Shown piece by piece: positions 37,415 to 56,370 of a DNA stretch of 64,000 nucleotides. The notes under the pieces are model-generated. The model searched no databases, was not told the DNA's origin, and was given only the letters and a program-made list of their open reading frames with translations. Numbering within the stretch: the first letter of the stretch is position 1; each line of letters opens with the position of its first letter. The translations under genes and the position numbers were made by a program. This DNA comes from a virus, in the IMG/VR virus record IMGVR_UViG_3300010885_053065, positions 1 through 64,000 of that record. The stretch is one strand, 5' to 3'.

Positions 37415-37462
37415 AAATAGTTAATTAACCTCCCCTAGAGTTGACTCTAGGGGTTTTGTTAT

Positions 37463-39535: not shown

Positions 39536-39629
39536 TAGTATAATGGAAGAAATACCCTCTCGCGGGCAAGTGTTGTAGCACTTAAACCCCAGAGGGAGTA
39601 ACTAACCTTAATCCAAGTAAGGAGTCACA
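39536..39629 (+). promoter_or_regulatory. Promoter plus structured 5' leader, copy 2
   Basis: Homologous to 22910-23000. Confidence 0.65.
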
Positions 39630-40340: not shown

Positions 40341-40759
40341 CTAAAAGAGAAGAAGTAGTAATTGAGGCTAGAAAGTGGCTTGGTACTCAGTGGAACCATG
40401 CTCAAAGCACTCAAGGTGTTCAGGTAGATTGCGTTAACTTTGTTTATGGAGTCGCTAAAGCTTGTGATATTGATTGTGGTAATTTACCTGAAGAATACCC
40501 AAGGTTAAGTGACGGCAAAGAGTTAATAAAGTATTTAGATACCTACTTTAAAGAGACTACTCTTGAAAACGCTAAAATAGGAGATATTCTAGTGTTTAAG
40601 TTCTTTGGTGTTCCTCACCACCTAGGGATTCTAACTAACCTCTTAGGGTATCCAAGTGTCATACATTCCTCAGCAGAATTTATGAAAGTTGTAGAGCATA
40701 TTTTAGATAGTAAGTATGTTAGAGTCTTATCAGGAGTATATAGTTTAGGTTATGAATAA
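40334..40759 (+). CDS. NlpC/P60 tail-associated peptidase
   Basis: ARKWLGT…VDCVNFV…GDIL…HLGI…IHS. Confidence 0.9.
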   Translation: MLTKREEVVIEARKWLGTQWNHAQSTQGVQVDCVNFVYGVAKACDIDCGNLPEEYPRLSDGKELIKYLDTYFKETTLENAKIGDILVFKFFGVPHHLGILTNLLGYPSVIHSSAEFMKVVEHILDSKYVRVLSGVYSLGYE

Positions 40760-41105
40760 AATGTCTGATCAAGTTATACATATAAAAGTTCAAAGAGCTA
40801 ATAAAGAAGACAAGATTTTGGTTGTATCAACAAAAGCAGATAATGATTTAGAGATAGAAAAAATTCCTTTTTCAGGTCGTCTTATTTCCGATGATCCTGA
40901 TTATTGGTTAGATCATTTTTATTTTATTAAAGGACAAAACGTAGGCAATAATCTTGCACAAATAATTGAAAATAACAGAAATTGGATCAAGGAAATACAA
41001 CAGTTAGAAGATTTAGATAATAACTTGCATGGTGAGTCTTCTGAGTCATCATTTTGGTCGGAAATGGAAAATGGGGAAGAGAAGATTAAAAGGGTTAGTT
41101 TATGA
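40752..41105 (+). CDS. Hypothetical protein
   Basis: ORF flanked by a 15-bp direct repeat. Confidence 0.55.
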   Translation: MNKMSDQVIHIKVQRANKEDKILVVSTKADNDLEIEKIPFSGRLISDDPDYWLDHFYFIKGQNVGNNLAQIIENNRNWIKEIQQLEDLDNNLHGESSESSFWSEMENGEEKIKRVSL

Positions 41106-41434
41106 ATAAAATGTTTTTAAGTAAGTTATTTAGTGTCAAAAAACTAGCAAATCTTGTTAAAAAAAGGCTGAAAAAAAGTAGAGAGATTATAGAAGAATCT
41201 AACGGAAGTGAAGGATATTGTGACACAGTGGTTATGTCAGATCCTGTACTCACTTCAATAACTGGATTATCAGAAGATAACAGATGTATTGGTTGTAGTT
41301 ACTACTCAACTAACGGACTCTTACGCTGTGCGGTCAACCCTACACTAGCTGAAAATATTGGTGCGTACTCAATTAATAATTGTGTTGATTTCAAAAGAAG
41401 AGAATTTAAACCCTTTTTCACTACGGTTAAATAA
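41102..41434 (+). CDS. Cys-rich protein (DUF6464-like)
   Basis: CIGCSYY…LRCAVNP…C. Confidence 0.55.
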   Translation: MNKMFLSKLFSVKKLANLVKKRLKKSREIIEESNGSEGYCDTVVMSDPVLTSITGLSEDNRCIGCSYYSTNGLLRCAVNPTLAENIGAYSINNCVDFKRREFKPFFTTVK

Positions 41435-44163
41435 TGGCTGAGTCTTTAGTAATCTCGCTTGCTATAAGTACTGCTGTTGGCTTTATTGGTTCGTTACTTA
41501 CTCCAAAGAAAAAGCCAACACTACCAGATATACCAGGTAGTCAATACGGAAAGACTTTAATTAGGGGTTTTGGTACCTTTGCTGTTGAGGGAAATATGAT
41601 CTTTCCTGAAACTGCTAACCAAGCTTTTAGGATTAGTAGAAGCCGTTCTAAAGGAGGTAAAGGGATACCTCAAAGTCAGTCAGAGAGAGTGTACGGTAAG
41701 TTCATGGCTGTGTTCTGTCAAGGTCAAACTACCTTTGATACTCTCTGGATAAATGGAGTTACTCATGGTGGTAACGGTAGTTACGACGGGTACATGACTC
41801 AGCAAGGGTTTGATTTTTTTGATGGCAGACCTTTGACTATTAACGGAGGTGCTCAACTGCCATGGTCAGATGCTCAAGCCATTAACGGAGCTAATAATAC
41901 ACCTGCTTATACTGGTTTAACTTGTGCGGCTTTCTCTAATCTTGATTTAACCAAGTTAGGGAACACTTTCCCTACTCAGTTCAAGATGAAATTGGTAGAT
42001 GTTGAACTTGGTGCAGAACCATCTTTAGGTGCTGTTGTCAAGGCTATTTGTAAGTTATCAGGATTATCAGATAGTCAGGTTGACACTAGTGATCTTGCTG
42101 GATTTCAGATAGTTGGGTTCGTTATGGATCAATCTGGAGGTTCTTATAAGGATTCAATTAGTCAATTAGCGTCAGCATGGTTGTTTTATCACACTGAGTT
42201 ACAGGATGGTACATTAGCCTTTAGATTCTTTGATAGGAGTTTTACGGGAGATAGCCCATTAATTATTCCTGCTGACGAATTAGGAGCTTATGACGGGGTT
42301 GAGAGCAATTTTCCTTTTAATATTCGTAGAGATTTTATAGATCCACTAGAACTTCCCTCTAAGATATGGTTGACCTTTACTAACCCCAATATTGGTTTCT
42401 ATAGAGATACGGTAGTAGGTGAAGCTCAGTGGGCTAAGCATAAAAATGAACTAAATATAGACTGTTCTAATTGCATCATGACAGCAGGACAGGCTATAAC
42501 CCAAGTCAGCAGAATGATGCAACAGTTCTGGGTGCAAAGAAACAAGTTTAAGTTTACACTGCCTCCTGTCAGTCCTAGTAGTGGGTTTAAGTATATTAAT
42601 CTATCAGTTGGTAACTTACTAGAATTACCTACAGGTGAGGTGGTTCAGATTGAGAAGATTGATATAGGTCTCAATTATATAGTTGAGATAGTTGCACACG
42701 GATATGGTAAATCATCTTCTATTACTGCTGGATCAGGTTCTAGTTCAAGTGTCAGCCCTCCTAGAAGCAATTCAGAGTATACAGACAATATTCCTGTTGG
42801 ATCAACTTCAAATAAGCTAACAATACTCGACATTAATACAATATCTGATAGCGACTCAGAAAGAGGTGTTTATGTTACTGCCTCTGGCTCTAATGTCAAT
42901 GTTCTAGTTTCTATCGATAATGGTACTTCTTACTCAAAAGCTACAACCTTAACTACTCCTGGAATTGTTGTCAATAACGTAACAGGAACGCTAATTAGTT
43001 GGAGTGATACAACAGCAACTGACACGACTAGTACTTTAACAATCCCTCAATCAGTAGGAACTATCTCAAGTATCACTAGTGGTCAAGCAGCTACTCTCAC
43101 AGAGAATGTCGCTTTTGTTGGTTCTACTACAACCGTTAACGGCACTTCAGTCTATAGAGGGGAGATAGTTGTTTTTACTACTGTTACCGTCTCTGGCTCA
43201 AATTATGTTTTGAGTAACTTTACTAGAGGGGTTAGAGGAACAGAGTCTTATATGTCTACTCACGGCACCAATACAGACACTTTTGTCTTATTGAATGGTG
43301 TTGGTGCTAACGTTTCTAGAATCTCGATAGACGATCAATATATTGGAACTAATCTATATTTTCAGACAACTAATAATGACTGGCAAACCTCCTATTCAGA
43401 TCCTTCTGCTACTCAATTTAGTTATCAGGCTATTGGCTTAAAGCCTTACCAACAGAAGAATATAGCGTTTAACTACGATTCTGCACAAAACATTGTTATC
43501 AGTTGGACTAAAGTCCCTAGAGGGATGGCATTAACAACAGGAGAGTTAATTGATTCTTATTCTCTAGATATCCTAAACAATAGTAATGCTGTTGTAAGAA
43601 CCTTAACTAGTGCTTCTCCTGTAGCTATCTACTCCAAGGCTCAGCAGATAACCGACTTTGGTTCAGTCCAAACTAGCTTAAAAGTTAATTTATATAAAGT
43701 TTCTAGTATTGTTGGCAGAGGTTATGTAAGAAGTTTATCAACTACTGTAGCGAGTGCAGGTAGCAGTACTTCTATAGTAGGTGACACAAGTACAGATAGT
43801 TTTAAGGCTACTAAAACCATTACAGCAAACTATACTGTTTTGACTACTGATAATGGTTATTGGATAGTTGTCAATAACGCAAGTCTTACAGGGAGTGTAT
43901 CAATTACAATAACAGTTAGTAATGCGCTCCCATTAGGTTTTAGATGCTATTTTGTTAATCCTTTACCAGTATCTGGCAACAATGTTATTCTTACTTTTGT
44001 GTCTTCTACAAGTGAGCCATTTTATACAACAAATACCCTAAAACCTGATTCAGTTGGCTTATTGTATTTTCATGGTTCAAGTTGGACTTTGAACTCAGGA
44101 AAAGCAGAGTCTGTAGGTGGTTCAGGATTCACTGATATAGAACAATTGAGATTTTTATTATGA
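41434..44163 (+). CDS. Tail tip / host-specificity protein
   Basis: SQYGK..IRGFGT..GNMI, PAYTG, RGVRGTE. Follows the hub and NlpC genes. Confidence 0.85.
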   Translation: MAESLVISLAISTAVGFIGSLLTPKKKPTLPDIPGSQYGKTLIRGFGTFAVEGNMIFPETANQAFRISRSRSKGGKGIPQSQSERVYGKFMAVFCQGQTTFDTLWINGVTHGGNGSYDGYMTQQGFDFFDGRPLTINGGAQLPWSDAQAINGANNTPAYTGLTCAAFSNLDLTKLGNTFPTQFKMKLVDVELGAEPSLGAVVKAICKLSGLSDSQVDTSDLAGFQIVGFVMDQSGGSYKDSISQLASAWLFYHTELQDGTLAFRFFDRSFTGDSPLIIPADELGAYDGVESNFPFNIRRDFIDPLELPSKIWLTFTNPNIGFYRDTVVGEAQWAKHKNELNIDCSNCIMTAGQAITQVSRMMQQFWVQRNKFKFTLPPVSPSSGFKYINLSVGNLLELPTGEVVQIEKIDIGLNYIVEIVAHGYGKSSSITAGSGSSSSVSPPRSNSEYTDNIPVGSTSNKLTILDINTISDSDSERGVYVTASGSNVNVLVSIDNGTSYSKATTLTTPGIVVNNVTGTLISWSDTTATDTTSTLTIPQSVGTISSITSGQAATLTENVAFVGSTTTVNGTSVYRGEIVVFTTVTVSGSNYVLSNFTRGVRGTESYMSTHGTNTDTFVLLNGVGANVSRISIDDQYIGTNLYFQTTNNDWQTSYSDPSATQFSYQAIGLKPYQQKNIAFNYDSAQNIVISWTKVPRGMALTTGELIDSYSLDILNNSNAVVRTLTSASPVAIYSKAQQITDFGSVQTSLKVNLYKVSSIVGRGYVRSLSTTVASAGSSTSIVGDTSTDSFKATKTITANYTVLTTDNGYWIVVNNASLTGSVSITITVSNALPLGFRCYFVNPLPVSGNNVILTFVSSTSEPFYTTNTLKPDSVGLLYFHGSSWTLNSGKAESVGGSGFTDIEQLRFLL

Positions 44164-44489
44164 CGATCACATATACTCCAAAGACTAAAGCAGCAGTAGC
44201 AACTAGTTCTCTTACTACTATCTATACTGTACCAAGTGACACTACAACTAGAGTAGAGAAAATTACTATTACAAATGGTGCAACAGCAGGTACAGTCACG
44301 CTTAAATTTTACGATGCAAGTGCTACCACATCTTATTTTTTAGCTTGTAACGCTTATCCAATAGCTGCTAACGCACTAAGGGAAATAGCGGGTGAGATAC
44401 TAGAAACGGGCGATTATCTTCAAATTAGTGCAGCTACTACAACCGATCTGACTGTTAAACTGAACTACGTAGAGGCGGTTGTAAGCTAA
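44160..44489 (+). CDS. Putative virion structural protein
   Basis: Thr-rich beta protein with TIYTVP and LETGD motifs. Confidence 0.6.
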   Translation: MTITYTPKTKAAVATSSLTTIYTVPSDTTTRVEKITITNGATAGTVTLKFYDASATTSYFLACNAYPIAANALREIAGEILETGDYLQISAATTTDLTVKLNYVEAVVS

Positions 44490-45265
44490 TGTTTTTAAGA
44501 TCTCCTAGACCTGATTTACTAGAGACTAGAGATAACTTTGGGATTGTGGCAAGTAGTTTAGGTGACAATAATTTAAAAAGCAATTTGCTAAGTTATTGGG
44601 ATCTAACACCTGCCTCTAGTTATAATGATCTAACAAATAATGGTAGTAACTTAACGTTAATTAATTCTCCTAGTGGAGATAATACAAATGGTGTATTATT
44701 AAATGGTACTAATCAATATTTATCGGTTGCTAGTAATTCGTATCTTCAATTTACTAGTAGCGATTTTACTATAGCTGGTTGGATCAATCCAACTTCTTTA
44801 GCTGCCAACGGAAGTTACAATTTTATTGTTTGCCAAGACAATATTGGGGTTGGTAGAAATTGGGGGGTTATTTATGATCCGACTACTGCAGATACTAAAT
44901 TAAATTTTCAAATTTTTAACTCATCTGGATCAGCTTTCTCTGTTAAATCAAACTTTCAACCAACAATAAATAATTGGTATTTTTTAGTTGCAACACACTC
45001 TACCTCTGCAAAAAAAATTACATTTATTGTTTTTGAAGGGTCTACCACTACACCTGTTTACGCAGGTGTAGTGACTTACACAGGAACTTTGGCAACAAAT
45101 TCTTTACTAACTACTTTTGGTTGCGTTTTAATTTCTGGTAGTCCAAATTTTTATTTTAATGGTAGGTTAAAGCAATGGGGTATTTGGTCTAGAACATTAA
45201 CAGGATCAGATATTCTGCAACTGCATAATAGCGGTAATGGGTTATTTTTTTCTTCGCTAGATTAG
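44489..45265 (+). CDS. LamG/concanavalin A-like tail protein
   Basis: LNGTNQYL, FTIAGWI, WYFLVAT, FNGRL…IWSRTLT. Confidence 0.85.
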   Translation: MFLRSPRPDLLETRDNFGIVASSLGDNNLKSNLLSYWDLTPASSYNDLTNNGSNLTLINSPSGDNTNGVLLNGTNQYLSVASNSYLQFTSSDFTIAGWINPTSLAANGSYNFIVCQDNIGVGRNWGVIYDPTTADTKLNFQIFNSSGSAFSVKSNFQPTINNWYFLVATHSTSAKKITFIVFEGSTTTPVYAGVVTYTGTLATNSLLTTFGCVLISGSPNFYFNGRLKQWGIWSRTLTGSDILQLHNSGNGLFFSSLD

Positions 45266-45273
45266 AGTTAATA

Positions 45274-45960
45274 TTAATCAACATCTGATTGGTTGGATTG
45301 AGCAATATAAGAGATTAACTCAAGAAATCTACCACCACGCTTAGTAGATATCAATTGCTCTGTTGAGTGAAAATCTAATACTGAGTAGAGTTTAAATAGA
45401 TTCTGAGATTTGTAGACACCTGATAGTATCTCTGTCTTAGTGCATCCAAGAGACATTAACAGTTCAAAATAACCTAAAAACTCTATTAGCTCTTGTCTAT
45501 TTATAGTAAGTAGATTTATCTCAAAAAGTACAGGAAATATTTCTCTACTATTAGCTTCTTTAGCTAAGAATAAAATATGCTTTTGTCCAGATTCAGCTAT
45601 AGCAATAGTAAAAGGCGGTTCAGGAGGGTTAACAAGCCATTCTCTAATCTGTGGTCTTGTGGGTAAGTCGGTTACTCTATCACCTTCAATCTTAGGGTAA
45701 GACTCTTTCTCTGAAATTAACCAAGACCAACAACGACCAAATAATAGTACTTCTTTTTGACTATGTGGATTATAGTATTTAAGTCTTAGAGGGATAACGT
45801 AATGACAACGATCACATAACTTATCAGAGGTTGGAGACTTAGCTGAACTGTGAGCCGTGAAACTGTCTTTTAGTATTCCTTCTTTAGGTTTGGTGGCAGG
45901 AATTGAACCACAGAGATAGCATGAGTCTTTTATTTTAGTGTCACTAGTCACGTCACTCAC
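45274..45960 (-). CDS. csf1: Type IV CRISPR large subunit Csf1 (Cas8-like)
   Basis: CYLCG…LCDRC Zn finger and NPPEPPF…SGQKH. Confidence 0.8.
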   Translation of the reverse strand: MSDVTSDTKIKDSCYLCGSIPATKPKEGILKDSFTAHSSAKSPTSDKLCDRCHYVIPLRLKYYNPHSQKEVLLFGRCWSWLISEKESYPKIEGDRVTDLPTRPQIREWLVNPPEPPFTIAIAESGQKHILFLAKEANSREIFPVLFEINLLTINRQELIEFLGYFELLMSLGCTKTEILSGVYKSQNLFKLYSVLDFHSTEQLISTKRGGRFLELISYIAQSNQSDVD

Positions 45961-46046
45961 CTTGGCTTTGGTAATAGTTCTCTTGGAGAGTTGGGAGATT
46001 TGTGTGCTATGTCACTAAACACGACACTTGCCTTGGCTTTGGTAAT
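45940..46046 (-). CRISPR. Mini-array: repeat (46011-46046), 35-bp spacer, repeat (45940-45975)
   Basis: Two 36-bp degenerate repeats. The 46011 copy is 28/36 identical to the main array repeat. Confidence 0.7.
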
Positions 46047-46319
46047 ACTAAAATTGTGAACTGCATAAAGAGAAGTGACATCCTCAAAAATGATTTTCTC
46101 TTTAATTTTGAGATCTTCTAGGCTATCGTAATCTACAGGCTCTCCATCTTCGGTGAGCAAGAATATATCCTGAGCGCCTATTCTGAGTGCATAAACTACA
46201 TCAGGACGACTAGGCAGTGAGACGCTGTAAAGGGTATATTGTCCCATACTAATAAGGCTTAAAACAGCATCTGGGAGTTTACTGAGACGACTTTTTGGGA
46301 TGGACGAAGTGGTGATCAT
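45957..46319 (-). CDS. Hypothetical protein whose C-terminus reads through the mini-array
   Basis: GAGAGGA RBS, 120 aa, lies between repeats. Confidence 0.5.
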   Translation of the reverse strand: MITTSSIPKSRLSKLPDAVLSLISMGQYTLYSVSLPSRPDVVYALRIGAQDIFLLTEDGEPVDYDSLEDLKIKEKIIFEDVTSLYAVHNFSITKAKASVVFSDIAHKSPNSPRELLPKPR

Positions 46320-46496
46320 GGCTCTATCCTCTCTTTATTAGCTAATCTCAAAGTTGTAACAGATTACCAACTTGTTACCAAAAGATGATGGTGGCTAAAG
46401 TGAAGTAAATGGGTATTAATGGTTAACTAAGCATTATGCTCAATTTATGGATTACATTCTACCTACAATCTAGCTCACTAAAAATATTTATTTCTG

Positions 46497-46532
46497 GTCA
46501 CTAAACGCGTCACTTACCTTGGCTTTAGCAGT
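46497..46532 (-). repeat. Third CRISPR-like repeat
   Basis: GTCACTAAACGCGTCACTTACCTTGGCTTTAGCAGT (+), related to the 46011 copy. Confidence 0.7.
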
Positions 46533-46546
46533 AGCCTGTCTTTAGT

Positions 46547-46807
46547 TCAAGAGTAGATCAATTCAGCTATTCGTTTTTCCTCAGCCAGAAATTTTAATAA
46601 GTTATCGGGAAGCGGAACAGCTTGTAACTCAATCCAGTACAAACAATGTCTTGGCGCAAATTCTATATCACGATCTGTAGAAGATCCTACGGGAAAGCCA
46701 TTCATGTCTAAATATCTCAACACATCAAACAACTCCTCTTTGTCTTTTGTCCTAAATATCAACTTTGAAGAATTGCGAGGTGACTGCAAATATATTTCAT
46801 ACATCAT
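46547..46807 (-). CDS. Hypothetical protein
   Basis: 86 aa ORF. Confidence 0.5.
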   Translation of the reverse strand: MMYEIYLQSPRNSSKLIFRTKDKEELFDVLRYLDMNGFPVGSSTDRDIEFAPRHCLYWIELQAVPLPDNLLKFLAEEKRIAELIYS

Positions 46808-46809
46808 TT

Positions 46810-47165
46810 TTACCTTAATAGATGATAAACTTTATTGTTACACAACAAAAAACTTTTACCTATTTTCTCCAAACCTTTATTTAATATGTTGATTGCTGCA
46901 TTTTGATCCCTATCTAAAACACATTGACAGTGTGGGCATTGATGCAGTCTTACACTTAAAAGTTTTGGCACTTTTTCACCGCAACTTGAGCAATTCTGAG
47001 AAGTGTTGTGGGGGTTAACTTCTATTACTTGAACTCCAAACTTAGAAGCTATTTCCTTTAGTCTTAAAACAAAATAACCCCATGCTGCATTAGAAATAGC
47101 TTTAGAAGGATTTTCACAGTAAATTTTTGCATAACAGGATCGGTAGAGCCAAAACTTTTTTCATA
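46810..47165 (-). pseudogene. tnpB: Internally deleted tnpB remnant
   Basis: Manual translation: IYCENPSKAISNAAWG…EVNPHNTSQNCSSCGEKVPK…QCPHC…DRDQNAAINI. No in-frame start. Upstream hairpin GCCTAGA-TTAC-TCTAGGC. Confidence 0.85.
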
Positions 47166-47232
47166 TGACACTCCGATAGTTTTTATTAGCGAGAAATCAA
47201 AAAGCCTAGAGTAATCTAGGCTGATAGTGTGG

Positions 47233-47297
47233 TTTAGTATTCCTTCTTTAGATTTGGTGGCAGGAATCGAACCACAAAGATAGCAAGAGTCTTTCAC
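47233..47297 (-). pseudogene. Truncated duplicate of the csf1 5' end
   Basis: 47233-47294 is 58/62 identical to 45869-45930 (KDSCYLCGSIPATK.KEGIL). Confidence 0.9.
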
Positions 47298-47311
47298 GCA
47301 ATCTACAAATA

Positions 47312-47671
47312 TTATTTAAGTTTTTTCTCTATTGTAGTGGTGATGGTCTGATTGATAATCATAAGCTCTTTCTTGTTTTCGGTAATAGTTATAGTATGTT
47401 TGGTATCTTCTCTTACAGAATTTACTTCTGTATCATCTCTATTGGTATTAATAACTTTTTTAGAATAATCTACATCATACTCAATTCTTTTTATGTTGCA
47501 TGTTTTAGGTTGTAAATTACAACTGGGTTGAATACTGGTAGAGCATCTATTTAAATTTGATATTTTGCAAGCTGGCGTGTTTTTAAGAGTCTCAAGATCT
47601 TCTGCTAGCACACTATTTGTATTTACTTCTAATGCAATAAAAAGTAATAAAATAAACAATGAAATACGCAT
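47312..47671 (-). CDS. Secreted hypothetical protein
   Basis: N-terminal signal peptide and four Cys. Confidence 0.55.
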   Translation of the reverse strand: MRISLFILLLFIALEVNTNSVLAEDLETLKNTPACKISNLNRCSTSIQPSCNLQPKTCNIKRIEYDVDYSKKVINTNRDDTEVNSVREDTKHTITITENKKELMIINQTITTTIEKKLK

Positions 47672-47789
47672 AAGTTAAACCCCTGTTTCTTTATGATTTA
47701 TTAATATTTTAACAACAAAATATAGTTTTCTGTATACACTTTTCATTGTTTTAAGATATTCTCGTTTTATATTTAATAGTTCCGATAAT

Positions 47790-48374
47790 TTAAACAAACA
47801 CTCCACAACCTAACTTGTGTTTACCGCCAATACCTGACACTTGAAGCTTAATAGAATCTTCTTTACTTAAGTTAAATGCTTTAGCTTTAAACCCTACTAC
47901 AGTATAATTCCTCTCACTTCTTGGGATGCGTATTGTCAGTCTTTCTAATACTTCAATATCTGCTTTAATCTCTAACTTATCTAGTTGTTTATCTGCTGCT
48001 ATTTTAAATAGCTCTGGAGTGACAGCATTCTTGATTACAACCAATCTAGCTATTAACTCTGTTTTACCTTCTAGCATCCTATATAAAGGGTTTCCTAGCC
48101 TTATTTGGTAGCGCATTATCTTAAGGTTAGAGTCTTTAAGTTTAGTAAATAACTTGGCGTTATCTATAGTTGTTCTGATTAACAAAGTAGATTTATCTGT
48201 TAATTTAATCTCTCCATTGTTGTTAGGGAGTCCAGTTATTGTGTTAATAAAAACTTCCTCTAGACTATGGAGTTCTTGTATTTTTGAACACAAAGCAGAG
48301 TATAGATAATAATTATGGTCAGCATAGAGAGACTGACCATAAACAGGGAATAGAATATCAACAAATTGAGACAA
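47790..48374 (-). CDS. cas6: Cas6 endoribonuclease (Myxan/Cmx6-like)
   Basis: VDILFPV…ADHNYYLYSAL and C-terminal G-loop GIGGKHKLGCGVF. Confidence 0.9.
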   Translation of the reverse strand: MSQFVDILFPVYGQSLYADHNYYLYSALCSKIQELHSLEEVFINTITGLPNNNGEIKLTDKSTLLIRTTIDNAKLFTKLKDSNLKIMRYQIRLGNPLYRMLEGKTELIARLVVIKNAVTPELFKIAADKQLDKLEIKADIEVLERLTIRIPRSERNYTVVGFKAKAFNLSKEDSIKLQVSGIGGKHKLGCGVFV

Positions 48375-48393
48375 GTTAAATTAATTTCTCCAG

Positions 48394-49161
48394 TTACTGT
48401 AGAGACAAACTAACCAAGTTAAGTTTGTCTCTAGTCTCGTTCAAATCTTTTTCTATGTAATCTGAGACTGGAAAATCACTAAAAATATCAACAGAGTTTA
48501 CTCCTATATTCCAAGCTTTAACAATGCGCTCAGTTTTAAAATAATCAACTCCTTGTGCTTCTAAAAATATCTGTAGTTGCTCCAACAATAGAATAGGAGG
48601 ATTGCAGCGATTTATCATTCCTTCTTCAAAAGCAATTATTTCTAGTTCTCCTTGTACTGTAGTAGGAACATCTAGTAATATATGGTGAAAATCATGAACC
48701 AAGATATAGCTAGACGGAAACATTGATGGTTTATCTACTGTTGCTACGTTTCCATTATTTTGATAATACTGGTGTAGAGCATATCCTACTGTTCCCTTCT
48801 TACAAAAAGGAAGTTTTTTAAAAAGTTTTATATTTTCTGGGTTAGGAGTTAATGATTCTAAGAAATAGCTTTTGAGTCCAATTAATTTATCTTTTAAAGA
48901 CATAAAAGGCAATATTTTTGGCATTGTTTGTGTCCTTAAAGTACAAGTTGGTCTTACGTATTCAAACCTTATTCGGCTAAAGATCTGCCATAAATTAGCA
49001 GAAGTAACACCTAGTAAATTAACTGGTGTCAGTAAACTTACTACATCGATTTCTGGTTTAACTAATTTAATAATTTCTTCTCTATTTTCTGCTTGAATAA
49101 TTCGATTAAATAGATTATTATCGGTCAAAACTTGTTCAAGAAAATTAAGTTCAACAGTCAT
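48394..49161 (-). CDS. Coq4-like metalloprotein
   Basis: GTVGYAL and HDFHHIL…GELEIIAF (HDxxH…E). Confidence 0.7.
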   Translation of the reverse strand: MTVELNFLEQVLTDNNLFNRIIQAENREEIIKLVKPEIDVVSLLTPVNLLGVTSANLWQIFSRIRFEYVRPTCTLRTQTMPKILPFMSLKDKLIGLKSYFLESLTPNPENIKLFKKLPFCKKGTVGYALHQYYQNNGNVATVDKPSMFPSSYILVHDFHHILLDVPTTVQGELEIIAFEEGMINRCNPPILLLEQLQIFLEAQGVDYFKTERIVKAWNIGVNSVDIFSDFPVSDYIEKDLNETRDKLNLVSLSLQ

Positions 49162-49882
49162 AAAATGCCTCAGTTACATTCTGTTTTAAATATGAGTATA
49201 ACATAGGATTAAATCGCTTCATGTTCTCTAAAGAGGTTTTCTGTAAGGATTTGTTTTTGTTAGCAGAATACCAATAATTAGCATGAGCATTGGTTCTACT
49301 TGTTTTACGGTCTAATTTGTCATACAAGTCCAAGTAAGGAATATCATAATAAAAAAGATAAGCCCAAACATCCTGCCATGACCACCATGCAAGAGGACAT
49401 ACTCTATAGTATCCTTTATGTTTTCCTGTTTGGTATTGATGAATTAACCCGTATTTTTTTAGAGATCTTCTTCTATTAATACTTTCTTCTGCTCTTAGCC
49501 CAACAAAAGCCACACTGTAATCAACTACTGCATTTATCCTGTCTTGGACTGTATCAGAAGTAGCAGCATTCTCTTTTTGAGCTTTAATATCTAAATACTT
49601 AGTTGGAAATTTCTCACAATACCTAGAGATTGTTTCCGAGTAATTAGAAACATAATCTTGCTCTATTGAGCTATAACAAACTGCAGCAATATCAGGTTTA
49701 ATTTGTTGGCAAAGGTGCAACATTACGGTTGAATCTTTGCCCCAACTAATAGCTACATAAGAGTCACCAATCTCTAGAGCTTCAGAAATTATTTGCTTGG
49801 ATTTCTCTACTCTTTTTTTAAAGCTATCTAGTAGCGCATAACCTCTATAGGCTTGATATTCTGGATCATCTTTTAAAAGCAA
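49151..49882 (-). CDS. CysH-like PAPS reductase-family protein of a type IV-B locus
   Basis: SWGKDS, GLRAEESINR, PLAWWSWQDVWAY. Confidence 0.88.
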   Translation of the reverse strand: MLLKDDPEYQAYRGYALLDSFKKRVEKSKQIISEALEIGDSYVAISWGKDSTVMLHLCQQIKPDIAAVCYSSIEQDYVSNYSETISRYCEKFPTKYLDIKAQKENAATSDTVQDRINAVVDYSVAFVGLRAEESINRRRSLKKYGLIHQYQTGKHKGYYRVCPLAWWSWQDVWAYLFYYDIPYLDLYDKLDRKTSRTNAHANYWYSANKNKSLQKTSLENMKRFNPMLYSYLKQNVTEAFYDC

Positions 49883-49885
49883 CTG

Positions 49886-50584
49886 TCAATTAGCATTGGT
49901 TTTTAACCTAGGCTTCTCCTTAATCTGTCTTACATTGTCTTTTGGTATATAACACAGTACTTGATTCTGATGCATCCATGATGGTGTTTTCCAAGCCACA
50001 ACCATCATGTCATGCACCTCTAAATCTAGTTGCTGTGCCATCTCTAAAGGAATTGGTCTTGTGACACGTCTTTCTTTCTCAAACGACCAGTCATAGTCAA
50101 TTTCTTTAACTGACCACTCAGAGACATAAGCAAAGCCGTAGGATCTCTTTTTCCCTAAGTGAGTAACTGTAGATAGAGCTAACTTTATCTGCTCTTTATC
50201 TCCTACTACAAACCAGTCAATCCTTTCAGTAAGCTTCAAGAATAGAGGTAGATCATAAGACTTGAATTGACCATCTGAGCCAGAAAACTTAGCCTTCTTC
50301 TTACCCCAATCAAGATGCTCACTTTGATAATCCCACCGTTTTCTATATCTATCAGTACTCTCTATAGAGTATAAGTAGTGAGGACTAGAAGCTTGATAGA
50401 AACCTAGTTCATGCTTTTTAATTGGTAACTCAATCTCAGTTAAAGTCTCAAAGGTTACGTTAGTGTCAAGTCTACCAGTTGATTCTCTAACTGAGTACTC
50501 TATTATCCCTGTGATATCAGGAGAAAGATTGTCTGTTACAGCAATAGGTCTAGCTAGATTAGCTGTTATTTGTAAAGGAATCAT
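49886..50584 (-). CDS. csf3: Type IV Csf3 (Cas5-like)
   Basis: PLQITANL, WFVVGDKEQI, LGKKRSYGF, RPIP. Confidence 0.85.
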   Translation of the reverse strand: MIPLQITANLARPIAVTDNLSPDITGIIEYSVRESTGRLDTNVTFETLTEIELPIKKHELGFYQASSPHYLYSIESTDRYRKRWDYQSEHLDWGKKKAKFSGSDGQFKSYDLPLFLKLTERIDWFVVGDKEQIKLALSTVTHLGKKRSYGFAYVSEWSVKEIDYDWSFEKERRVTRPIPLEMAQQLDLEVHDMMVVAWKTPSWMHQNQVLCYIPKDNVRQIKEKPRLKTNAN

Positions 50585-51144
50585 GGCTTACTTAAATCCA
50601 ATTGATTACAAAGTTTATCTATTACCAAGTGATAAACAGTACCACTAGAGCCAGACTCATGTGTGTTAATTAATAGTTCAACTAAAGCAAAAAAACTTAA
50701 AGGTCCTTGAAGCGTTACGTCCAACTGCAAAGAAGAAATAACATTTTTTATCTTCTCAGCAAGAACGTTTAGTAGACACTTTTTAATCGAGATTCTTGAT
50801 GGCTCAAAAAGATGTACTGATAGATAAATATAGGCAGCAACTAGGTCAATTAGTGAGTGTTCTTCTGACTCAATATCAGTTGCTTCTGTTGTGGATAATA
50901 CTGATTCAATTGTTGTCATTTCTACCTGATTAATTATTTCTATTTGTTGTGATTCTTCTATTTTATCAATTGTCTCTTCTTGCTCAGTAATCCCAATACC
51001 GTGCTCATTTAGATATTTCAAATACCAATTACGCATCGTTTTAGGAGGAACCAAAGGGAAATCTTTATAAAGTCTTCTAGGTTGACTTCCATTTCTAAAC
51101 CTATTTAATATCTCTGACTTGTACTTGTCTCCTCTACTAGCCAT
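50581..51144 (-). CDS. HTH protein paralogous to the TerS N-terminus
   Basis: YKDFPLVPPKTMRNW versus YKEFSDVPPKTIRNW in 25213-25698. Confidence 0.7.
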   Translation of the reverse strand: MASRGDKYKSEILNRFRNGSQPRRLYKDFPLVPPKTMRNWYLKYLNEHGIGITEQEETIDKIEESQQIEIINQVEMTTIESVLSTTEATDIESEEHSLIDLVAAYIYLSVHLFEPSRISIKKCLLNVLAEKIKNVISSLQLDVTLQGPLSFFALVELLINTHESGSSGTVYHLVIDKLCNQLDLSKP

Positions 51145-52307
51145 TATCCAAATACTCCCTTGATTTCACTGTTATTACTTTTAATAAACTCTCGATAATC
51201 AGCCAGATAAGATTTATATCTCTCTTGCTGTAGACTAGCTCTACTTTCTAATACTTGATGTCCATCTTTAATTGATATCCAACTACCTGCTTCTTCTCCA
51301 CTAGAGTAATAAATCTCTACAGCAACTCTACCGAAACCTGTATTACTCATCCCTCCTAAATAAGGATTCTCTGCCCAATTGCTAATAGCATCAGCTATAA
51401 ACCCTTCCTCAATATCAGTAACGTTAGCATCCCACCGAGAGTAGAGTTTTGCTCCTTGCTGTATTAACCATGCACCCATAATCATTTGATTAGACTTTTG
51501 TTTCTCTTCTTTTTTCTCTGTACTATCTCCAAATAAAGATTGTTGTCCTTCTTTAGATGCAGCAGGCAATAAGTACTTAACAAGAGAAGGATCATGGTGT
51601 GAGTCCATTCTTACCTTTTGGTTATAGGTTAACCAGTGTGGGTAAGGTCTGAGAATCTCTTGTAGGTAGGGTAGCCAATACTTTAGAGTTTCTTTGTAGC
51701 TAGTATCGTCTAGCGTCTGTTCTCTCTTAAAGAGGAAATTAGAGACTCTTGTTTCCTCTAAATCTTTTTTAGCTTGAGAGATAGCTTTTAACCCCTCTAA
51801 AGCAGCTGCAGGTAAAGCAGGTTGAAATATTTGAAACTGATTTAAGGCTGACTCGTAACAAATAAGCATTGCATCGCCAACATTAATCCGACCTGGAATC
51901 ATTTGAGCATCTTTACCACCAAAGACTCCTTTAGGTTTAGCTGTTCCTAGTACTGATATAGGAGGTAAAAACTGTCTTATCTTTTTATCAAGCTCTAGAT
52001 CATTAGCTGTACCACCATCAATTGCACCACCACAGAACAAAGTATGATGCAAGATTGGAGATACCTGTATCCCTAGTTCACTTAAGAAAGAATCGACTCC
52101 TACACGTCTTAATATTCTGTTCCTTAGTGCGTTACCTGAGAGACAAAATACTTGGCTAGGATTGCCTTCTATATCGGTTATAGCTAGAGTTTTGAGGTTA
52201 GCTTGATTGCCTACTGATTCTCCAATATGGGATAGAGGTGACAAAGTTTCTATTACTAAGTGAAAAGTAATTCTGTGGCGTTGGTTCGGGTTGTAATTAT
52301 TTGGCAT
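51144..52307 (-). CDS. csf2: Type IV Csf2 (Cas7-like)
   Basis: TLSPLSH, SGNALR…LRR, LFCGG, PPISVLG, LGGMSNTGFG. Confidence 0.9.
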   Translation of the reverse strand: MPNNYNPNQRHRITFHLVIETLSPLSHIGESVGNQANLKTLAITDIEGNPSQVFCLSGNALRNRILRRVGVDSFLSELGIQVSPILHHTLFCGGAIDGGTANDLELDKKIRQFLPPISVLGTAKPKGVFGGKDAQMIPGRINVGDAMLICYESALNQFQIFQPALPAAALEGLKAISQAKKDLEETRVSNFLFKREQTLDDTSYKETLKYWLPYLQEILRPYPHWLTYNQKVRMDSHHDPSLVKYLLPAASKEGQQSLFGDSTEKKEEKQKSNQMIMGAWLIQQGAKLYSRWDANVTDIEEGFIADAISNWAENPYLGGMSNTGFGRVAVEIYYSSGEEAGSWISIKDGHQVLESRASLQQERYKSYLADYREFIKSNNSEIKGVFG

Positions 52308-52616
52308 TTAACTATTAATTATCTCCTCTTCATCTGGATAAACCTTTGTGGTCTTTTCACTTACGTAATAAATTTCAAGATTTGGACAAAGAGACAATAT
52401 TTTGTCTGACTCTTCTTGTCGTCTTTGTTTTTCATACTCAATCATTTTATCTATTAACAATTCTTCATCTTTTTCTTGATGAGCGTCTACAAGGAACTTA
52501 GCTACTTTATCTAAATTTCTACTTATTTCATTGGGATTATTACAATCAATAGACTCTACAAACAATCGTCCTGCATCATCTGGAGTCAACTTCTCTATCG
52601 CCTTTTTAGACATCAA
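52308..52616 (-). CDS. Hypothetical protein in the type IV operon
   Basis: Coupled ORF. Confidence 0.5.
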   Translation of the reverse strand: MMSKKAIEKLTPDDAGRLFVESIDCNNPNEISRNLDKVAKFLVDAHQEKDEELLIDKMIEYEKQRRQEESDKILSLCPNLEIYYVSEKTTKVYPDEEEIINS

Positions 52617-53118
52617 TTACATCCTCATCTTCTTGTTTATTGAGCCATAAAGCTTTATCTTCTTCATGTTTTAAGCGAACATATAAAGCGACAATTTGTG
52701 ACTTTTCTAGACACTGTCTTAATACGGCTCTATCGGTTATTCCAAACTGAATAGACCACCGTTTTATTATATCTTCCCAAGATTCCCACACTAAAGACTG
52801 ATCTGAGTCAATCTGTTGTATTTCTCCTACATTTCCATCCTCAGCTTTAGCTGCTCTTAAAATTACTTGTTGAGGTTGAACTAATCTAGTCCACTCTTTA
52901 GGTTTAAGTGTTGGAACAACCAATCTTTTAGAGAGATAGTGAATATAGTCGTTTAAGTTTCTAGAGGGAATAGCAGCATTTTCTATTGATGTTTGAACAT
53001 ACTCCCAAGTCTTAATTCCGTTAGCAGGAGAACGTTGTTTGTCACGGCATCTAAATACCCAATAAGTTAAGGCGCTAGCTAAAGCTATTGGTTTGTCTTC
53101 TGTATTAATTCCTAACAA
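52606..53118 (-). CDS. Putative Cas11 small subunit
   Basis: Small helical protein upstream of csf2. Call rests mainly on position and the W…I..AA…L..Y pattern. Confidence 0.6.
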   Translation of the reverse strand: MLGINTEDKPIALASALTYWVFRCRDKQRSPANGIKTWEYVQTSIENAAIPSRNLNDYIHYLSKRLVVPTLKPKEWTRLVQPQQVILRAAKAEDGNVGEIQQIDSDQSLVWESWEDIIKRWSIQFGITDRAVLRQCLEKSQIVALYVRLKHEEDKALWLNKQEDEDVIDV

Positions 53119-53393
53119 ATTCTTGTCCCTATTTCTATTAATAATTTTCCGTCAGAATCTAATTGATATTCTATAAATTCTAACTTACGGTAAACAATTT
53201 GATTACCTGTGTGATAACACTTGTTTATCTTTATACACATATATTCAATTGACGGAGATTTGTATTTTTTTAAATGATTCTGTAAACGCTTTTTACAATC
53301 TTCTAGATTATAAAAATTTCTTCGTTCAATACAATACTCTGTTTTTTTAGAGATTAAATCTACTTTAATATACTCAAAATAATAAAAAAACAT
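53112..53393 (-). CDS. Hypothetical AT-rich inserted gene
   Basis: Flanked by an exact 16-bp direct repeat (53100-53115, 53409-53424). Confidence 0.5.
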   Translation of the reverse strand: MFFYYFEYIKVDLISKKTEYCIERRNFYNLEDCKKRLQNHLKKYKSPSIEYMCIKINKCYHTGNQIVYRKLEFIEYQLDSDGKLLIEIGTRIC

Positions 53394-53514
53394 ATTTTTT
53401 TTTATTTCCTGTATTAATTCCTAATATTAGTTTTTTGATTCATTGGCTTTAAAAACACACAACATACTAGGGATCGGGGTAAATAAACAAAATACCCCAA
53501 TAGAACGATAATAC

Positions 53515-54234
53515 TTAAGCAAAGAAACGAGTGATTGCTAACTCTAATTCTTCGCTATCTTCGTACACATTAATATCTCTTAATTGACCATTACAAAGGC
53601 GACTTTCTTTAGAAGAAATCAACCCTTGTGCTGAGACAAATTTACCTAACCTGACTCGATTCTTGCTTGTGACCTTGTAACCCATCTCTTCAGCCTTTTG
53701 AGCAGCACCCACTAATCGAGCAGAAGGCAACACGGTTGTTGTAGTCTGTCCACTTAATTCACACAACTGATCGCCTAACTGATCTCTCAGTAGTTGAATC
53801 ATTGCAGCAGGTAGCCGACCCTCTAAAAAGACTAAATCTTTGGAAGCATTGATTAGGTCAACTGCATCTCTTTTAGGTGGCAGCTTTTGAACAGGAATTG
53901 CTGTTGAATAAGATCCAACTTTGCGAATGCTAGGGATGACTTCAGAGGTTAACCACTTTTTAAAAGCTTTGGCTTCTGGCTTACGAGAAGTAAGAACTAG
54001 TGAATATAGTCCAGACTCTGAAATAACCGACATACTTTGAATACGATTCATGGCGTCGCTAATACCGACATCATCTTTTTCGTCATCATCTAATCGTGTT
54101 AAAGCATCTCGACTATTAGATATCTCCAAAACTTTGCACACATCTAATGCAACAAACCAAGGCTCACCATTAATTACTATTACTCGTACTTGATTCTCGT
54201 TGAAGCTAAAAATTGATAGACTGTGATCAGTCAC
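53515..54234 (-). CDS. BRO-N antirepressor
   Basis: EPWFVALDVC…ISESGLYSLVLTSRKPEAK. Confidence 0.9.
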   Translation of the reverse strand: MTDHSLSIFSFNENQVRVIVINGEPWFVALDVCKVLEISNSRDALTRLDDDEKDDVGISDAMNRIQSMSVISESGLYSLVLTSRKPEAKAFKKWLTSEVIPSIRKVGSYSTAIPVQKLPPKRDAVDLINASKDLVFLEGRLPAAMIQLLRDQLGDQLCELSGQTTTTVLPSARLVGAAQKAEEMGYKVTSKNRVRLGKFVSAQGLISSKESRLCNGQLRDINVYEDSEELELAITRFFA

Positions 54235-54339
54235 TTTCTTTCCCTCCTAAGGAGTAAGTTGATTAGTCCTAGCACCTAAAGTTTTGACGGCTTTTAGTTG
54301 CTAGGCATTTTTTTATTATACCAAATTTACTTTAAATCC

Positions 54340-54849
54340 TAATAACTAGCTATCTCCACACACGGCTAGAAATTTAATTAAATTTCTGATATTGAGCAGT
54401 CTTTCTAATAGAAACCTATTTGAATATCTCAAGACTTTTTTGAGCGTGTTTTGATCACAGCGTTTTGAGCTTTGGCTAGAACCCTACTCTAGAGCACATC
54501 CCACTGCTCGCACGTTTTGTGCGTGCGCAGTCTTCTGCTAGCACATAAAACTGCTCGCACAGGATCAGCTTATATATAAATACGATCTATTAACAAATAA
54601 TAAAATTAACAAACAACAACTACCGGATCGGCTGTTGCTTTTGATTTTTTAAAATTAATTAAATTCCTATAGCCAATTAAAATACTCTCTAACTCACTTA
54701 AATTTGAGCTATAAGACGGGTAAATATACCTAAGCTACTCTTTCTACCAAAAAGAAATAAATAAACCCTACAGACTCAAATAAAGTGAAATTAGAATCAG
54801 TAGGACTTATTTACTTGTTAAGTTATCCTTTTCTTAATTAAGTTTTTAA
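54340..54849. repeat. Dispersed non-coding repeat, copy 3
   Basis: Inverted copy of 4237-4745. Confidence 0.95.
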
Positions 54850-54917
54850 TGGTCGGCTGGTTCTTTTGTTCTTTAGTAATCCTGCTCAAAATAAATTGAG
54901 TTTCTTTATATAAACAC

Positions 54918-54946
54918 TTGACAATTACCCAATAAATTGTTATATT
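54918..54946 (+). promoter_or_regulatory. Sigma70-type promoter
   Basis: TTGACA-17-TATATT. Confidence 0.8.
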
Positions 54947-54986
54947 AAGGATATAGAAAACAAAAACAAAGGAGACAAAACAAACA

Positions 54987-55235
54987 ATGATTACTTTTTA
55001 CTTAGATTCAAAAAACACAAAACTTTATGCTATTCCAAATGGAAGTAATGAAGTTTATGAGGTTGATTATACTTATGAAAAAAACTTTGAAGTTATAAAT
55101 CCTGATGCAATTTTGCCGTCTAGTGCGAATATTTTTCATGATTTGCACAACAGTAAACTTATAGGTGACGCAATAGCAGATGTTCTTTTGTATTATCTTC
55201 AAAAGAAGCAAAAAGAAAGAATCTTTAGTAAATAG
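54987..55235 (+). CDS. Hypothetical cassette protein
   Basis: Promoter and RBS upstream, terminator at ~55245-55272. Confidence 0.65.
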   Translation: MITFYLDSKNTKLYAIPNGSNEVYEVDYTYEKNFEVINPDAILPSSANIFHDLHNSKLIGDAIADVLLYYLQKKQKERIFSK

Positions 55236-55278
55236 CTAAAGTAGAACCCTCTGATTAAGTTCAGAGGGTTTTTGTTGT

Positions 55279-56370
55279 CTAAGAATCTGTTGCTCTACTC
55301 CAAGCATCAATTAGGCTTTGTTCGCCTATATGCCGTTTATAACTGTTATGGTGCACTTGTAAAGAGTGACCCATCATGCGAGCGGTTATACCTGATTCAA
55401 TACCTAATACAGAGCATCTAATGGCATAAGCATCTCTTAGATGGTAGGCTGTCCAAGGGAGTTGAACTCTTATTTTTAATCCGTGGGTTACTCTGTGCCC
55501 TAAATCCTTATTACCTACGTTCTTGTCTTGAAAGTTAGGAAAACGATAATCTGTCAGTTCCCACCTATCAACCCACTCTCTTAGTACTGGGAGTACTGTC
55601 CTACAACCTGTTTTAGTCGCGTCTTCTATTTGCAGAACGGGAACCTTTTCACTAAGTCTAGAGGTATCTAGGTAAAAGATTTCATGTGGACGTAAACCAA
55701 AAGTAGCTAATATAGCCACAACATACTGCCAACGCTTATTTTCTATATTGTCTACTACCTGCTCAATTTCAGTATCACTAGGTATAGTTCGTAAAGGTGG
55801 TTTGTAGTTTCCTTTATATCTAGATATCTGATTGGGAACTTTGGCAAACGACAAGAGAGCAGATAGAGCGTGAATATAATTACAACGCTTAGCAGTATCA
55901 GGTTCAGTATTAGTTAACAAAAACTCTTGAATTGTATCAAGAGTTAATGGTTCAGACATTGGTAACTTATCAAAAACATAATTGTACCGACATTTGTAAG
56001 TTGTTAGCCTCCTATCACTTTTAGAGTTCTTATGCCAGTACTCTTGCTCAAACTTCTTTAGCCAGTTTTCAATACTTTCCTCTGTTCCGACTAACTCTTG
56101 CTCTCTTTTTAACTCAGTTGGTCTAGTCCAATCTTGCCAGTTAAAGCGATCTAACATTAGATCTGACTCTAGCTTCTTGGCTTTACCTTCAGCTATCTGT
56201 AAGCCTTGGAGTGTGGCAACTGCTCCTGTTCTTAAATCTTGAGCCTTCTTTCCAGCTCCTTCTTTATTGGGGACAGTAGCTCTTATATAGAGCCTGTTAC
56301 CTTTTTGCTTGATTGAGCAAAGGTGTAAACGACTATTAGTTTTCCTGATAACGTCCTCAAAACTTTTCAT
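55279..56370 (-). CDS. int: Tyrosine integrase
   Basis: FGLRPHE, TKTG, YHLRDAY, MMGHS, HHNSY. Confidence 0.9.
   Translation of the reverse strand: MKSFEDVIRKTNSRLHLCSIKQKGNRLYIRATVPNKEGAGKKAQDLRTGAVATLQGLQIAEGKAKKLESDLMLDRFNWQDWTRPTELKREQELVGTEESIENWLKKFEQEYWHKNSKSDRRLTTYKCRYNYVFDKLPMSEPLTLDTIQEFLLTNTEPDTAKRCNYIHALSALLSFAKVPNQISRYKGNYKPPLRTIPSDTEIEQVVDNIENKRWQYVVAILATFGLRPHEIFYLDTSRLSEKVPVLQIEDATKTGCRTVLPVLREWVDRWELTDYRFPNFQDKNVGNKDLGHRVTHGLKIRVQLPWTAYHLRDAYAIRCSVLGIESGITARMMGHSLQVHHNSYKRHIGEQSLIDAWSRATDS

Follow-up and report, generated by a model that had tools for sequence, protein, structure and literature searches.

An intact type IV-B-style Csf operon with a Cas6 gene in a cyanophage-like virus, next to CRISPR-like repeats that appear to be relics of a TnpB cassette

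Type IV-B CRISPR-Cas systems are described as lacking both Cas6 and CRISPR arrays, and their function and RNA partner are treated as open questions (PMC8175902, PMC11656645, PMC12669027; papers are cited here and below from excerpts, unless their main text is named). Here, we present the analysis of an IV-B-like locus on the minus strand at positions 45274-53118 of a 64-kb stretch of viral DNA (positions 1 to 64,000 of IMG/VR record IMGVR_UViG_3300010885_053065; hereafter the window), which is the first part of a virus record of 89,719 bp that has direct repeats at its termini and a CheckV completeness of 100%. The original prediction, in line with these papers in taking IV-B to be generally without cas6 and arrays, had proposed that this locus supplies both missing parts, a MYXAN-type Cas6 and repeats that provide the guide. 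The first part stands, as an intact MYXAN-type cas6 lies inside the operon, but the second is not supported, as the repeats look like the degenerate tail of a cassette that also holds a TnpB remnant.

All six genes that had been named, cas11, csf2, csf3, a cysH-like gene, cas6 and csf1, are present in the same orientation on the minus strand and were borne out by matches to Pfam, PADLOC and NCBIfam models. From cas11 to cas6, eight genes form a packed run in which neighbours overlap by 1-11 nt or are separated by gaps of at most 19 nt; three of these are further open reading frames (ORFs), orf102, orf187 and a Coq4-like gene. The run opens with cas11 (52606-53118) as its first recognised gene, which encodes the type IV small subunit (PADLOC typeIV_Cas11, 4.6e-13) and had no match among PDB sequences. 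The run continues with csf2, the type IV Cas7 (51144-52307; PADLOC Csf2_0_IV, 5e-43), csf3, the type IV Cas5 (49886-50584; PADLOC Csf3_0_IV, 1.2e-38), and the cysH-like gene (49151-49882; Pfam PAPS_reduct, 4.5e-16), whose product is a CasCysH-like PP-loop protein. Among 38 distinct homologues of this protein the motifs SxGKDS and GxRxxES..R are at least 90% conserved, and the C-termini are variable and without a conserved C-terminal cysteine. The last gene of the run is cas6 (47790-48374; Pfam Cas6, 7.1e-51; PADLOC Cas6b, 1.1e-53). A 1.8-kb cassette splits it from csf1 (45274-45960; PADLOC Csf1_0_IV, 2.3e-25), which encodes an intact type IV small Cas8-like subunit of 228 amino acids that is 60% identical over residues 8-228 to its homologue in a related locus (L008). 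In two complete relatives (G006 and G007) the operon and csf1 are about 50 kb apart, and adjacency is therefore not needed. All seven Cas-related ORFs are full length and have conserved motifs.

The complete set of IV-B signature genes (csf1, cas11, csf2, csf3 and cysH-like) is present. Neither Cas1 nor Csf4/DinG had a match in the complete genome, with the Csf4/DinG positive control detected in 11 of 14 genomes, and no operon ORF matched RecD or Cas10 in the general family scans (Pfam, PADLOC, NCBIfam), in which neither was searched by name. The NCBIfam type IV models stayed below their cut-offs (csf2 scored 44.8 bits with TIGR03115, under the 130-bit cut-off), which marks the Csf proteins as distant members of type IV. 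A Csf2 profile was about equally far from the solved 'Cas7c', IV-B and IV-A proteins (1e-5 to 1e-6; 11fs 1.4e-6, 7jhy 1.5e-5 and 8rc2 1.6e-5, respectively), and the single Csf2 sequence reached 0.0023 against the Csf2 of 7JHY. Judged by its predicted gene content, the operon is IV-B plus a Cas6, and judged by sequence it is a distant member; the Cas6 inside the operon is a departure from the usual IV-B definition. Homologues of Csf2 (n=236) come nearly all from metagenomes, and tblastn of the window Csf2 against 50,697 deposited phage genomes gave no match. The operon is an intact type IV-B-style Csf effector operon in a clade almost confined to phages.

A solved counterpart, the Csf complex of Mycobacterium sp. 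JS623 (PDB 7JHY; PMC7937560, PMC8175902), has the five signature genes in common with the window operon, and both are without adaptation genes, DinG or a nuclease. The CysH-like protein likewise resembles IV-B CasCysH as described in PMC8175902, in being a PP-loop protein without the conserved catalytic cysteine. The JS623 system differs in being carried by a plasmid instead of a phage and in having neither the Cas6 nor the Coq4-like gene after cysH, and its Csf2 is only remotely like that of the window, which is no closer to IV-B than to IV-A or 'Cas7c'. Subtype IV-A (csf1-3, Cas6/Csf5, array and DinG) shares the combination of a type IV backbone with a Cas6, and there a Cas6-type enzyme matures the CRISPR RNA (crRNA) and is required for complex formation (PMC7038947). 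In contrast to IV-A, the window genome is without DinG/Csf4 and has cas11 and cysH, which are marks of IV-B, and whereas the Cas6 of IV-A is Csf5, that of the window belongs to the I-B/MYXAN family.

The family assignment of this Cas6 is well supported by an NCBIfam match to cas6_cmx6 (TIGR02807; 154.6 bits, cut-off 98.85) and by the best PDB match, the type I-B Cas6 8fcj_B (1.3e-22). Of 35 positions at which 20 cyanobacterial homologues show a conservation of 95% or more, the protein keeps 31, including the glycine-rich loop, and homologues with up to 46% identity occur in 43 of 401 sampled cyanobacterial genomes. At the nucleotide level, the 3' end of cas6 (47779-47906) is 72-83% identical to cas6 of several cyanobacterial genomes over 48-103 nt, which fits a host origin.

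The distribution of cas6 among related phages was followed in 55 fetched viral loci, which together with the window make up the 56 loci of an iterative hidden Markov model survey. Homologues were recognised in 54 (cas11), 53 (csf3), 50 (cysH), 38 (csf1), 23 (Cas6) and nine (Coq4-like) of these loci, two of the Cas6 matches (L046 and L075) being fragments of 57 amino acids. On a Csf2 tree of 55 rows, 23 are cas6-positive, 19 negative and 13 not assessable because the contig end is too close, which gives cas6 in 23 of 42 assessable related phage loci, and the cas6 label needs at least five changes across the tree. The window Csf2 falls into a clade of six (with L028, L007 and L008-L010) with 100% SH-aLRT support, in which all six members have cas6, and the window locus is therefore not a lone exception. 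The original prediction had asked whether Csf2 belongs to a clade that routinely has cas6 and arrays; the former is routine here, and the latter are not. In a tree of Cas6 that includes the 20 cyanobacterial homologues, the window protein pairs with that of L028 (94% support), which is also its closest relative by Csf2, and this pairing fits joint inheritance; a single origin of the phage Cas6 is compatible with this tree. The position of cas6 varies by sub-clade, as it is found after cysH or the Coq4-like gene, in the csf3-cysH gap, in the csf2-csf3 gap or upstream of a divergent csf1. By these comparisons, the Cas6 is an inherited and probably active member of the operon, seemingly derived from cyanobacterial I-B/MYXAN systems and regular in this clade.

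Cas6 in IV-B loci has been noted before as 'rare exceptions: only 12 instances' (Pinilla-Redondo et al. 2020, PMC7038947); these resemble the window operon in joining the IV-B gene set with a Cas6. A literature search, not covering subscription journals, returned no description of this cyanophage clade, of a MYXAN-type Cas6 in IV-B or of a Coq4-like partner. In two members of the immediate clade, the region directly after cas6 holds a conserved promoter-and-RBS-like (ribosome-binding site) leader (L008:8250-8400 and L009:7890-8040) followed by differing small ORFs, suggesting swappable gene cassettes, and the gap of 0.5-0.9 kb after cas6 in these loci contained variable small ORFs behind the leader and no repeats.

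Among the additional genes of the packed run, the Coq4-like gene (48394-49161; Pfam Coq4, 2.5e-5, 24.1 bits with the cut-off at 22.9) shares 11 nt with the end of cysH, and its translation keeps the motif HDxxH-x11-E. Look-up of the protein in the Atlas gave weak Coq4 leads. The nine loci with a homologue are the window, L028, L031, L033, L036, L045, L056, L068 and L076; eight of them have it directly after cysH, and in L068 there is a short gap between the two genes. The protein may be a second enzyme partner of IV-B. The other two ORFs were found in this phage alone among the 56 loci and are wedged between cas11, csf2 and csf3. The first, orf102 (52308-52616; 102 amino acids), overlaps the end of cas11 by 11 nt, abuts csf2 and had no match in Pfam, PADLOC, NCBIfam or PHROGs and no homologue in the 55 related loci. 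The second, orf187 (50581-51144; 187 amino acids), overlaps csf2 by 1 nt and csf3 by 4 nt and had no family match in the same four collections; its Atlas feature matches did not exceed 0.82, with helix-turn-helix (HTH) families as a weak lead, and its N-terminus is possibly HTH-like.

The three CRISPR-like repeats on which the original prediction had built were recovered at 45939, 46010 and 46496, inside the cassette that separates cas6 from csf1. Read along the minus strand after cas6, this cassette consists of orf119, a copy of the csf1 5' end, a hairpin, a TnpB remnant, orf86, repeat 3, 448 nt with orf120, repeat 2, a spacer and repeat 1, followed by csf1. The small orf119 (47312-47671) has a hydrophobic N-terminus and no family match. 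The orphan copy of the csf1 5' end (47222-47297) comprises about 25 codons and forms a 73-nt direct repeat (47222-47294) that is 89% identical to 45858-45930, and exactly at its break lies a terminator-like 8-bp hairpin with a T run (47203-47222); as a scan for such sites found four against 3.3 expected, the hairpin alone is weak evidence. The TnpB remnant (46810-47160; Pfam Cas12f1-like_TNB, 4.1e-7) is the C-terminal third of such a protein, with RuvC-II, the zinc finger and part of RuvC-III only, and orf86 (46547-46807) had no family match. Repeat 3 (46496-46533) and repeat 2 (46010-46047) are 79% and 87% identical, respectively, to the first copy, repeat 1 (45939-45976), which holds the GTG start codon of csf1, and a 33-nt spacer (45977-46009) lies between repeats 2 and 1. 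A further ORF, orf120 (45957-46319), spans repeats 2 and 1, has a weak PHROG match (0.0028) and may not be a real gene. The repeats are 36-38 nt long with 29-31 of 36 positions matching among themselves, and since their spacing is 71 nt and then 486 nt, only the first two, around the 33-nt spacer, look like an array.

The phage also carries a separate and intact V-U2-like unit, the array of which lies 28 kb away. Its TnpB/Cas12f/Cas12u2-like effector of 467 amino acids (17781-19184, minus strand; PADLOC Cas12f 1.6e-44 and Cas12u2 2e-43; Pfam OrfB_IS605, TNB and HTH domains) keeps the three RuvC acidic motifs in translation and is without zinc-finger cysteines. Directly downstream of it lies a CRISPR array on the same strand (17193-17512), in which four of the five 36-nt repeats are identical and the other has a single change; its spacers measure 38, 27, 40 and 35 nt. 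Between effector and array is a tracrRNA-like anti-repeat of 28 nt (17666-17693, minus strand), 24 positions of which are complementary to the array repeat. The effector and the anti-repeat imply that this array is matured without Cas6. The unit (17111-19305) is bracketed by a 56-nt duplication (54/56) of the start region of the downstream DUF433 gene and looks inserted as one piece. A second full-length TnpB, of the insertion sequence (IS) type and 396 amino acids long (26556-27746; PHROG transposase, 1.1e-135), has no repeats adjoining it. A comparable unit has been reported in the cyanophage vB_AphaS-CL131, where a TnpB-like gene adjoins a short array, termed V-U, with no other cas genes described near it (PMC6293099); by difference from the window phage, the main text of that paper does not contain the words 'csf', 'cas6', 'type IV' or 'cysH'.

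Several features tie the repeats beside csf1 to this type of unit. In both the intact and the relic unit a TnpB/Cas12-like gene lies directly upstream of the repeats, and relic repeats 1, 2 and 3 match the distant array repeat at 25, 28 and 24 of 36 positions. A degenerate 18-nt motif derived from the relic repeats occurred in the whole 89,719-bp genome only at the three relic sites and in the distant array, and the reversed motif occurred nowhere. The distant anti-repeat pairs with the relic repeats at 15-20 of 28 positions, and a search of the relic cassette for an anti-repeat of its own gave local matches of 7-10 nt at best. The remnant is 44% identical to the IS-type TnpB of the phage and 40.5% to the array-linked effector; the idea that it is a copy of the latter was dropped, as its zinc-finger cysteines are missing from the effector and its similarity to the IS-type TnpB is slightly higher. 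The repeats were also considered as IS ends and showed no likeness to the flank of the phage's IS-type TnpB or to eight cyanobacterial TnpB loci. Most simply, these comparisons can be read as showing the three repeats to be the decayed array of a second TnpB-type cassette, which would have landed in the csf1 5' end. They thus appear to be kin of the phage's separate V-U2-like unit and not a dedicated guide source.

This picture is reflected in the wider distribution of arrays, which we surveyed in 20 whole virus records including that of the window (G000). CRISPR-like arrays were present in 11 records, and in nine of these (G000, G007, G013, G014, G015, G017, G019, G023 and G024) a TnpB-like gene directly adjoins the array, although the 'array' of G019 is one pair of repeats. 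Arrays occurred in 4/10 cas6-positive and 7/10 cas6-negative records. Of the eight records with a completeness of 95% or more, four have cas6: the complete G000 and G007 have arrays, both adjoining TnpB-like genes, while G002 (96% complete) and G006 (100%) have cas6 and yielded no array even in a looser search for units of two repeats. The same search for mini-arrays in array-less relatives found none in G002, G012 and G025, and only tandem or coding-type repeats in G006, G004, G008, G005, G027 and G010. The arrays of these phages thus mostly lie beside a small class 2-like effector of their own, and cas6 is not dependent on an array carried by the phage.

Individual records of this survey differ in arrangement. 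In G001, a phage that also has an IV-B operon with cas6, two arrays of one repeat family (42033-42565 and 44463-44889) flank a gene for an IscB-like protein of 457 amino acids with RRXRR and HNH domains (43073-44446; L014:3073-4446); to our knowledge, IscB genes with arrays are rare. The two arrays of G011 (6066-6427 and 14649-15118) are in inverted orientation, have a common 36-nt repeat with a strong GC hairpin and bracket about 8 kb that includes an integrase-family gene. A cas6-negative sister clade (L059:14188-20849, G013, G014, G015, G017 and G023) has Cas12u2-like genes of 585-656 amino acids with arrays of up to about 38 repeats within 1-6 kb of the IV-B operon, and in L059/G015 two convergent effector genes enclose two different repeat families placed back to back. 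A run of short GC hairpins in G010 (36840-37240), with a period of about 37 nt and some identical 'spacers', lies 2.8 kb from cas11; it was rejected as CRISPR and is a tandem hairpin array.

We further compared the phage repeats with those that accompany related Cas6 enzymes in possible hosts. In 10 of the 12 best loci, repeats of 36-37 nt that belong to a single family are found within 10 kb of the host Cas6 gene. The phage repeats matched this family with z values of 0.4-2.8 on either strand, compared with 0.4-3.1 for six unrelated phage repeats, which is not significant. A position weight matrix scan for the host-type repeat (36 nt with a short GC stem) found none in G000, G001, G002, G006, G007 and G011, where the maxima were 5-13 compared with 38-55 for true repeats. 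When four repeats were folded on both strands, the energies were within about one standard deviation of those of shuffled sequences and the repeats were predicted to be nearly unstructured; folding did not settle the orientation of the array. On sequence grounds, nothing links this Cas6 to these repeats, although, given its divergence, a link is conceivable.

Targets were sought for the spacers of the array (n=4), for the 33-nt spacer and for the 448 nt that separate repeat 3 from repeat 2, all of which gave self-matches only in the 20 related records and 51 loci, and the array with its leader (17150-17800) had no match in phage and plasmid collections. Host spacers against the phage were tried as well: window positions 36001-56000 matched the 401 cyanobacterial genomes mostly in the TnpB remnant and in a few places on the cas6 3' end, the Ant gene and csf1. 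A handful of host matches of 37-44 nt with 84-87% identity had E-values near chance level for 401 genomes, and none of the matches was counted as a spacer.

The surroundings of the operon are those of a phage, with genes for a portal, an integrase, an Ant-type anti-repressor, tail proteins, a family B-like DNA polymerase and a ribonucleotide reductase; the Ant, integrase and tail genes are the neighbours of the operon. The portal had its best match among the 50,697 deposited phages in Aphanizomenon phage vB_AphaS-CL131 (26.9% identity, 7e-35), and the IV-B region as DNA had no match in the deposited phage collection. In a search of one genome each of 185,579 species, the sole cellular match to the Csf2 family was a 4.6-kb contig of a Dolichospermum metagenome-assembled genome (MAG), and the TnpB remnant matched many sites in the 401 genomes, which belong to the order of this MAG, at 68-89% nucleotide identity. 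Based on the portal, Csf2 and TnpB remnant matches, a host among filamentous cyanobacteria is likely. The virus is cyanophage-like, comes from freshwater and is probably temperate. Of two DNA runs whose contigs were compared with the stretch, one may be its source, and the other, from a second freshwater metagenome, contains identical fragments, two of which lie inside the csf1-cas6 cassette; none of the contigs spans the whole cassette.

Taken as a whole, we read the locus as an intact IV-B-style operon with a regular Cas6, with repeats that are relics of a TnpB cassette and with a product that is a Cas6-loaded, guided complex, and we give this composite reading slightly less than an even chance. 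Its steps are extrapolated from established class 1 biology. The Cas6 would cut a repeat-bearing RNA present in the infected cell and stay on the 3' end of that RNA, and a filament of Csf2 and Cas11 would then assemble on the cut RNA, with Csf3 and Csf1 at one end. The particle would bind complementary nucleic acid without cutting it, and would then either block this target or recruit to it the CysH-like PP-loop enzyme together with the Coq4-like partner. As sources of the RNA, host CRISPR transcripts would come first and the phage's type V-style transcripts second, a ranking based on the host-type enzyme and on the absence of an array from half of the complete cas6-bearing relatives. A more specific form of the reading would be piracy of crRNA, in which the host-derived Cas6 cuts host CRISPR transcripts and loads them into the nuclease-free IV-B particle, disarming host immunity, and which could also aim the spacer memory of the host at rival phages by means of the CysH-like and Coq4-like enzymes; we regard this version as improbable.

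A number of observations weigh against the composite reading. The phage Cas6 proteins have long branches, with no more than 46-47% identity to any relative, and their RNA specificity may therefore no longer match that of the host enzymes. The absence of a host-type repeat from the phage genomes fits the capture of host transcripts and equally fits another substrate. The single solved IV-B complex binds heterogeneous, non-CRISPR RNA (PMC7937560). In the cas6-positive G011 (L090; 71% complete), no class 2-like gene was recognised beside the hairpin-repeat arrays, and phage-borne arrays may thus feed the complex in some lineages. Finally, csf1 is displaced and its start is now inside relic repeat 1, which makes its expression uncertain.

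The proposal that the csf1-adjacent repeats, the five-repeat array or both are the guide source, to be cut by Cas6 so that the Csf complex uses their spacers and brings CysH to a defined target, has the location of the repeats in its favour, as they lie inside the locus in the same orientation as cas6 and csf1, and two repeat types with 24-28 of 36 matching positions are found in one genome. Long arrays also lie within 1-6 kb of the IV-B operon in the cas6-negative sister clade. A virus-borne precedent has been read likewise: the Fuxiviridae, viruses of Bathyarchaeia, have an atypical IV-B with a two-repeat mini-array for which no protospacer was reported (PMC10848311), and they share with the window a virus-borne csf1, csf2, csf3 and cysH-like gene set and a repeat-spacer-repeat unit in the locus. 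They differ in being archaeal viruses and in that 'cas6' has no occurrence in the main text of PMC10848311, and the mini-array of the window, unlike theirs, adjoins a TnpB remnant and is related to an array with an effector of its own. An Actinomyces plasmid region combines an IV-B locus with an inactivated Cas12b3 that has a mini-array, with no functional link stated in PMC12669027. The relic repeats themselves are degenerate, in contrast to the near-identical repeats of the intact array, and are irregularly spaced downstream of the TnpB remnant, whereas the intact array has its own RuvC-bearing effector and anti-repeat. The predicted lack of structure on both strands, the lack of significant likeness to host Cas6-linked repeats, the absence of any matched target for the spacers and the failure of cas6 presence to track arrays across the 20 records all speak against this use of the repeats as well, and we judge it unlikely.

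A particle with no target recognition at all could be formed if the Cas6 and Csf proteins acted as an anti-CRISPR sponge for host pre-crRNA or other RNA, or had some other unguided role, and would then resemble the heterogeneous-RNA complex of JS623. The assembly of the solved complex on non-CRISPR RNA (PMC7937560) agrees with this, and neutralisation of crRNA by IV-B has been raised as possible, though judged unlikely (PMC7038947); the host type of the Cas6 and the two complete cas6-positive relatives without an array are also as such a role would have them. However, an operon of seven to eight genes with a conserved PP-loop enzyme would be costly for a sponge, and an enzymatic output is favoured by the fact that 50 of 56 loci retain CysH, whose nucleotide-binding motifs are conserved; we consider an unguided role unlikely. 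It could also be that the module is decaying in this phage, the TnpB cassette having cut csf1 from the operon and left the system non-functional. The cassette that now separates cas6 from csf1, the orphan csf1 5' copy left behind, the csf1 start within a repeat and the two phage-unique ORFs wedged into the operon would all be expected of decay, but they contrast with seven full-length Cas-related ORFs with conserved motifs, with a csf1 that is 60% identical to relatives over nearly its whole length and with the distance of about 50 kb between csf1 and the operon in complete G006 and G007. As the matching pieces in the second freshwater metagenome, two of them inside the cassette, also count against it, we consider decay very unlikely.

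The arrays of the surveyed phages usually belong to small TnpB- or IscB-derived units, which is a caution against taking nearby repeats as the guide of IV-B. Piracy of crRNA, if true, would account for complete relatives that have cas6 and manage without an array. The clade to which the locus belongs is large and comprises dozens of natural IV-B operons that have an enzyme dedicated to RNA processing, and as the Cas6 is part of the operon, the RNA partner of IV-B is open to direct experiment.

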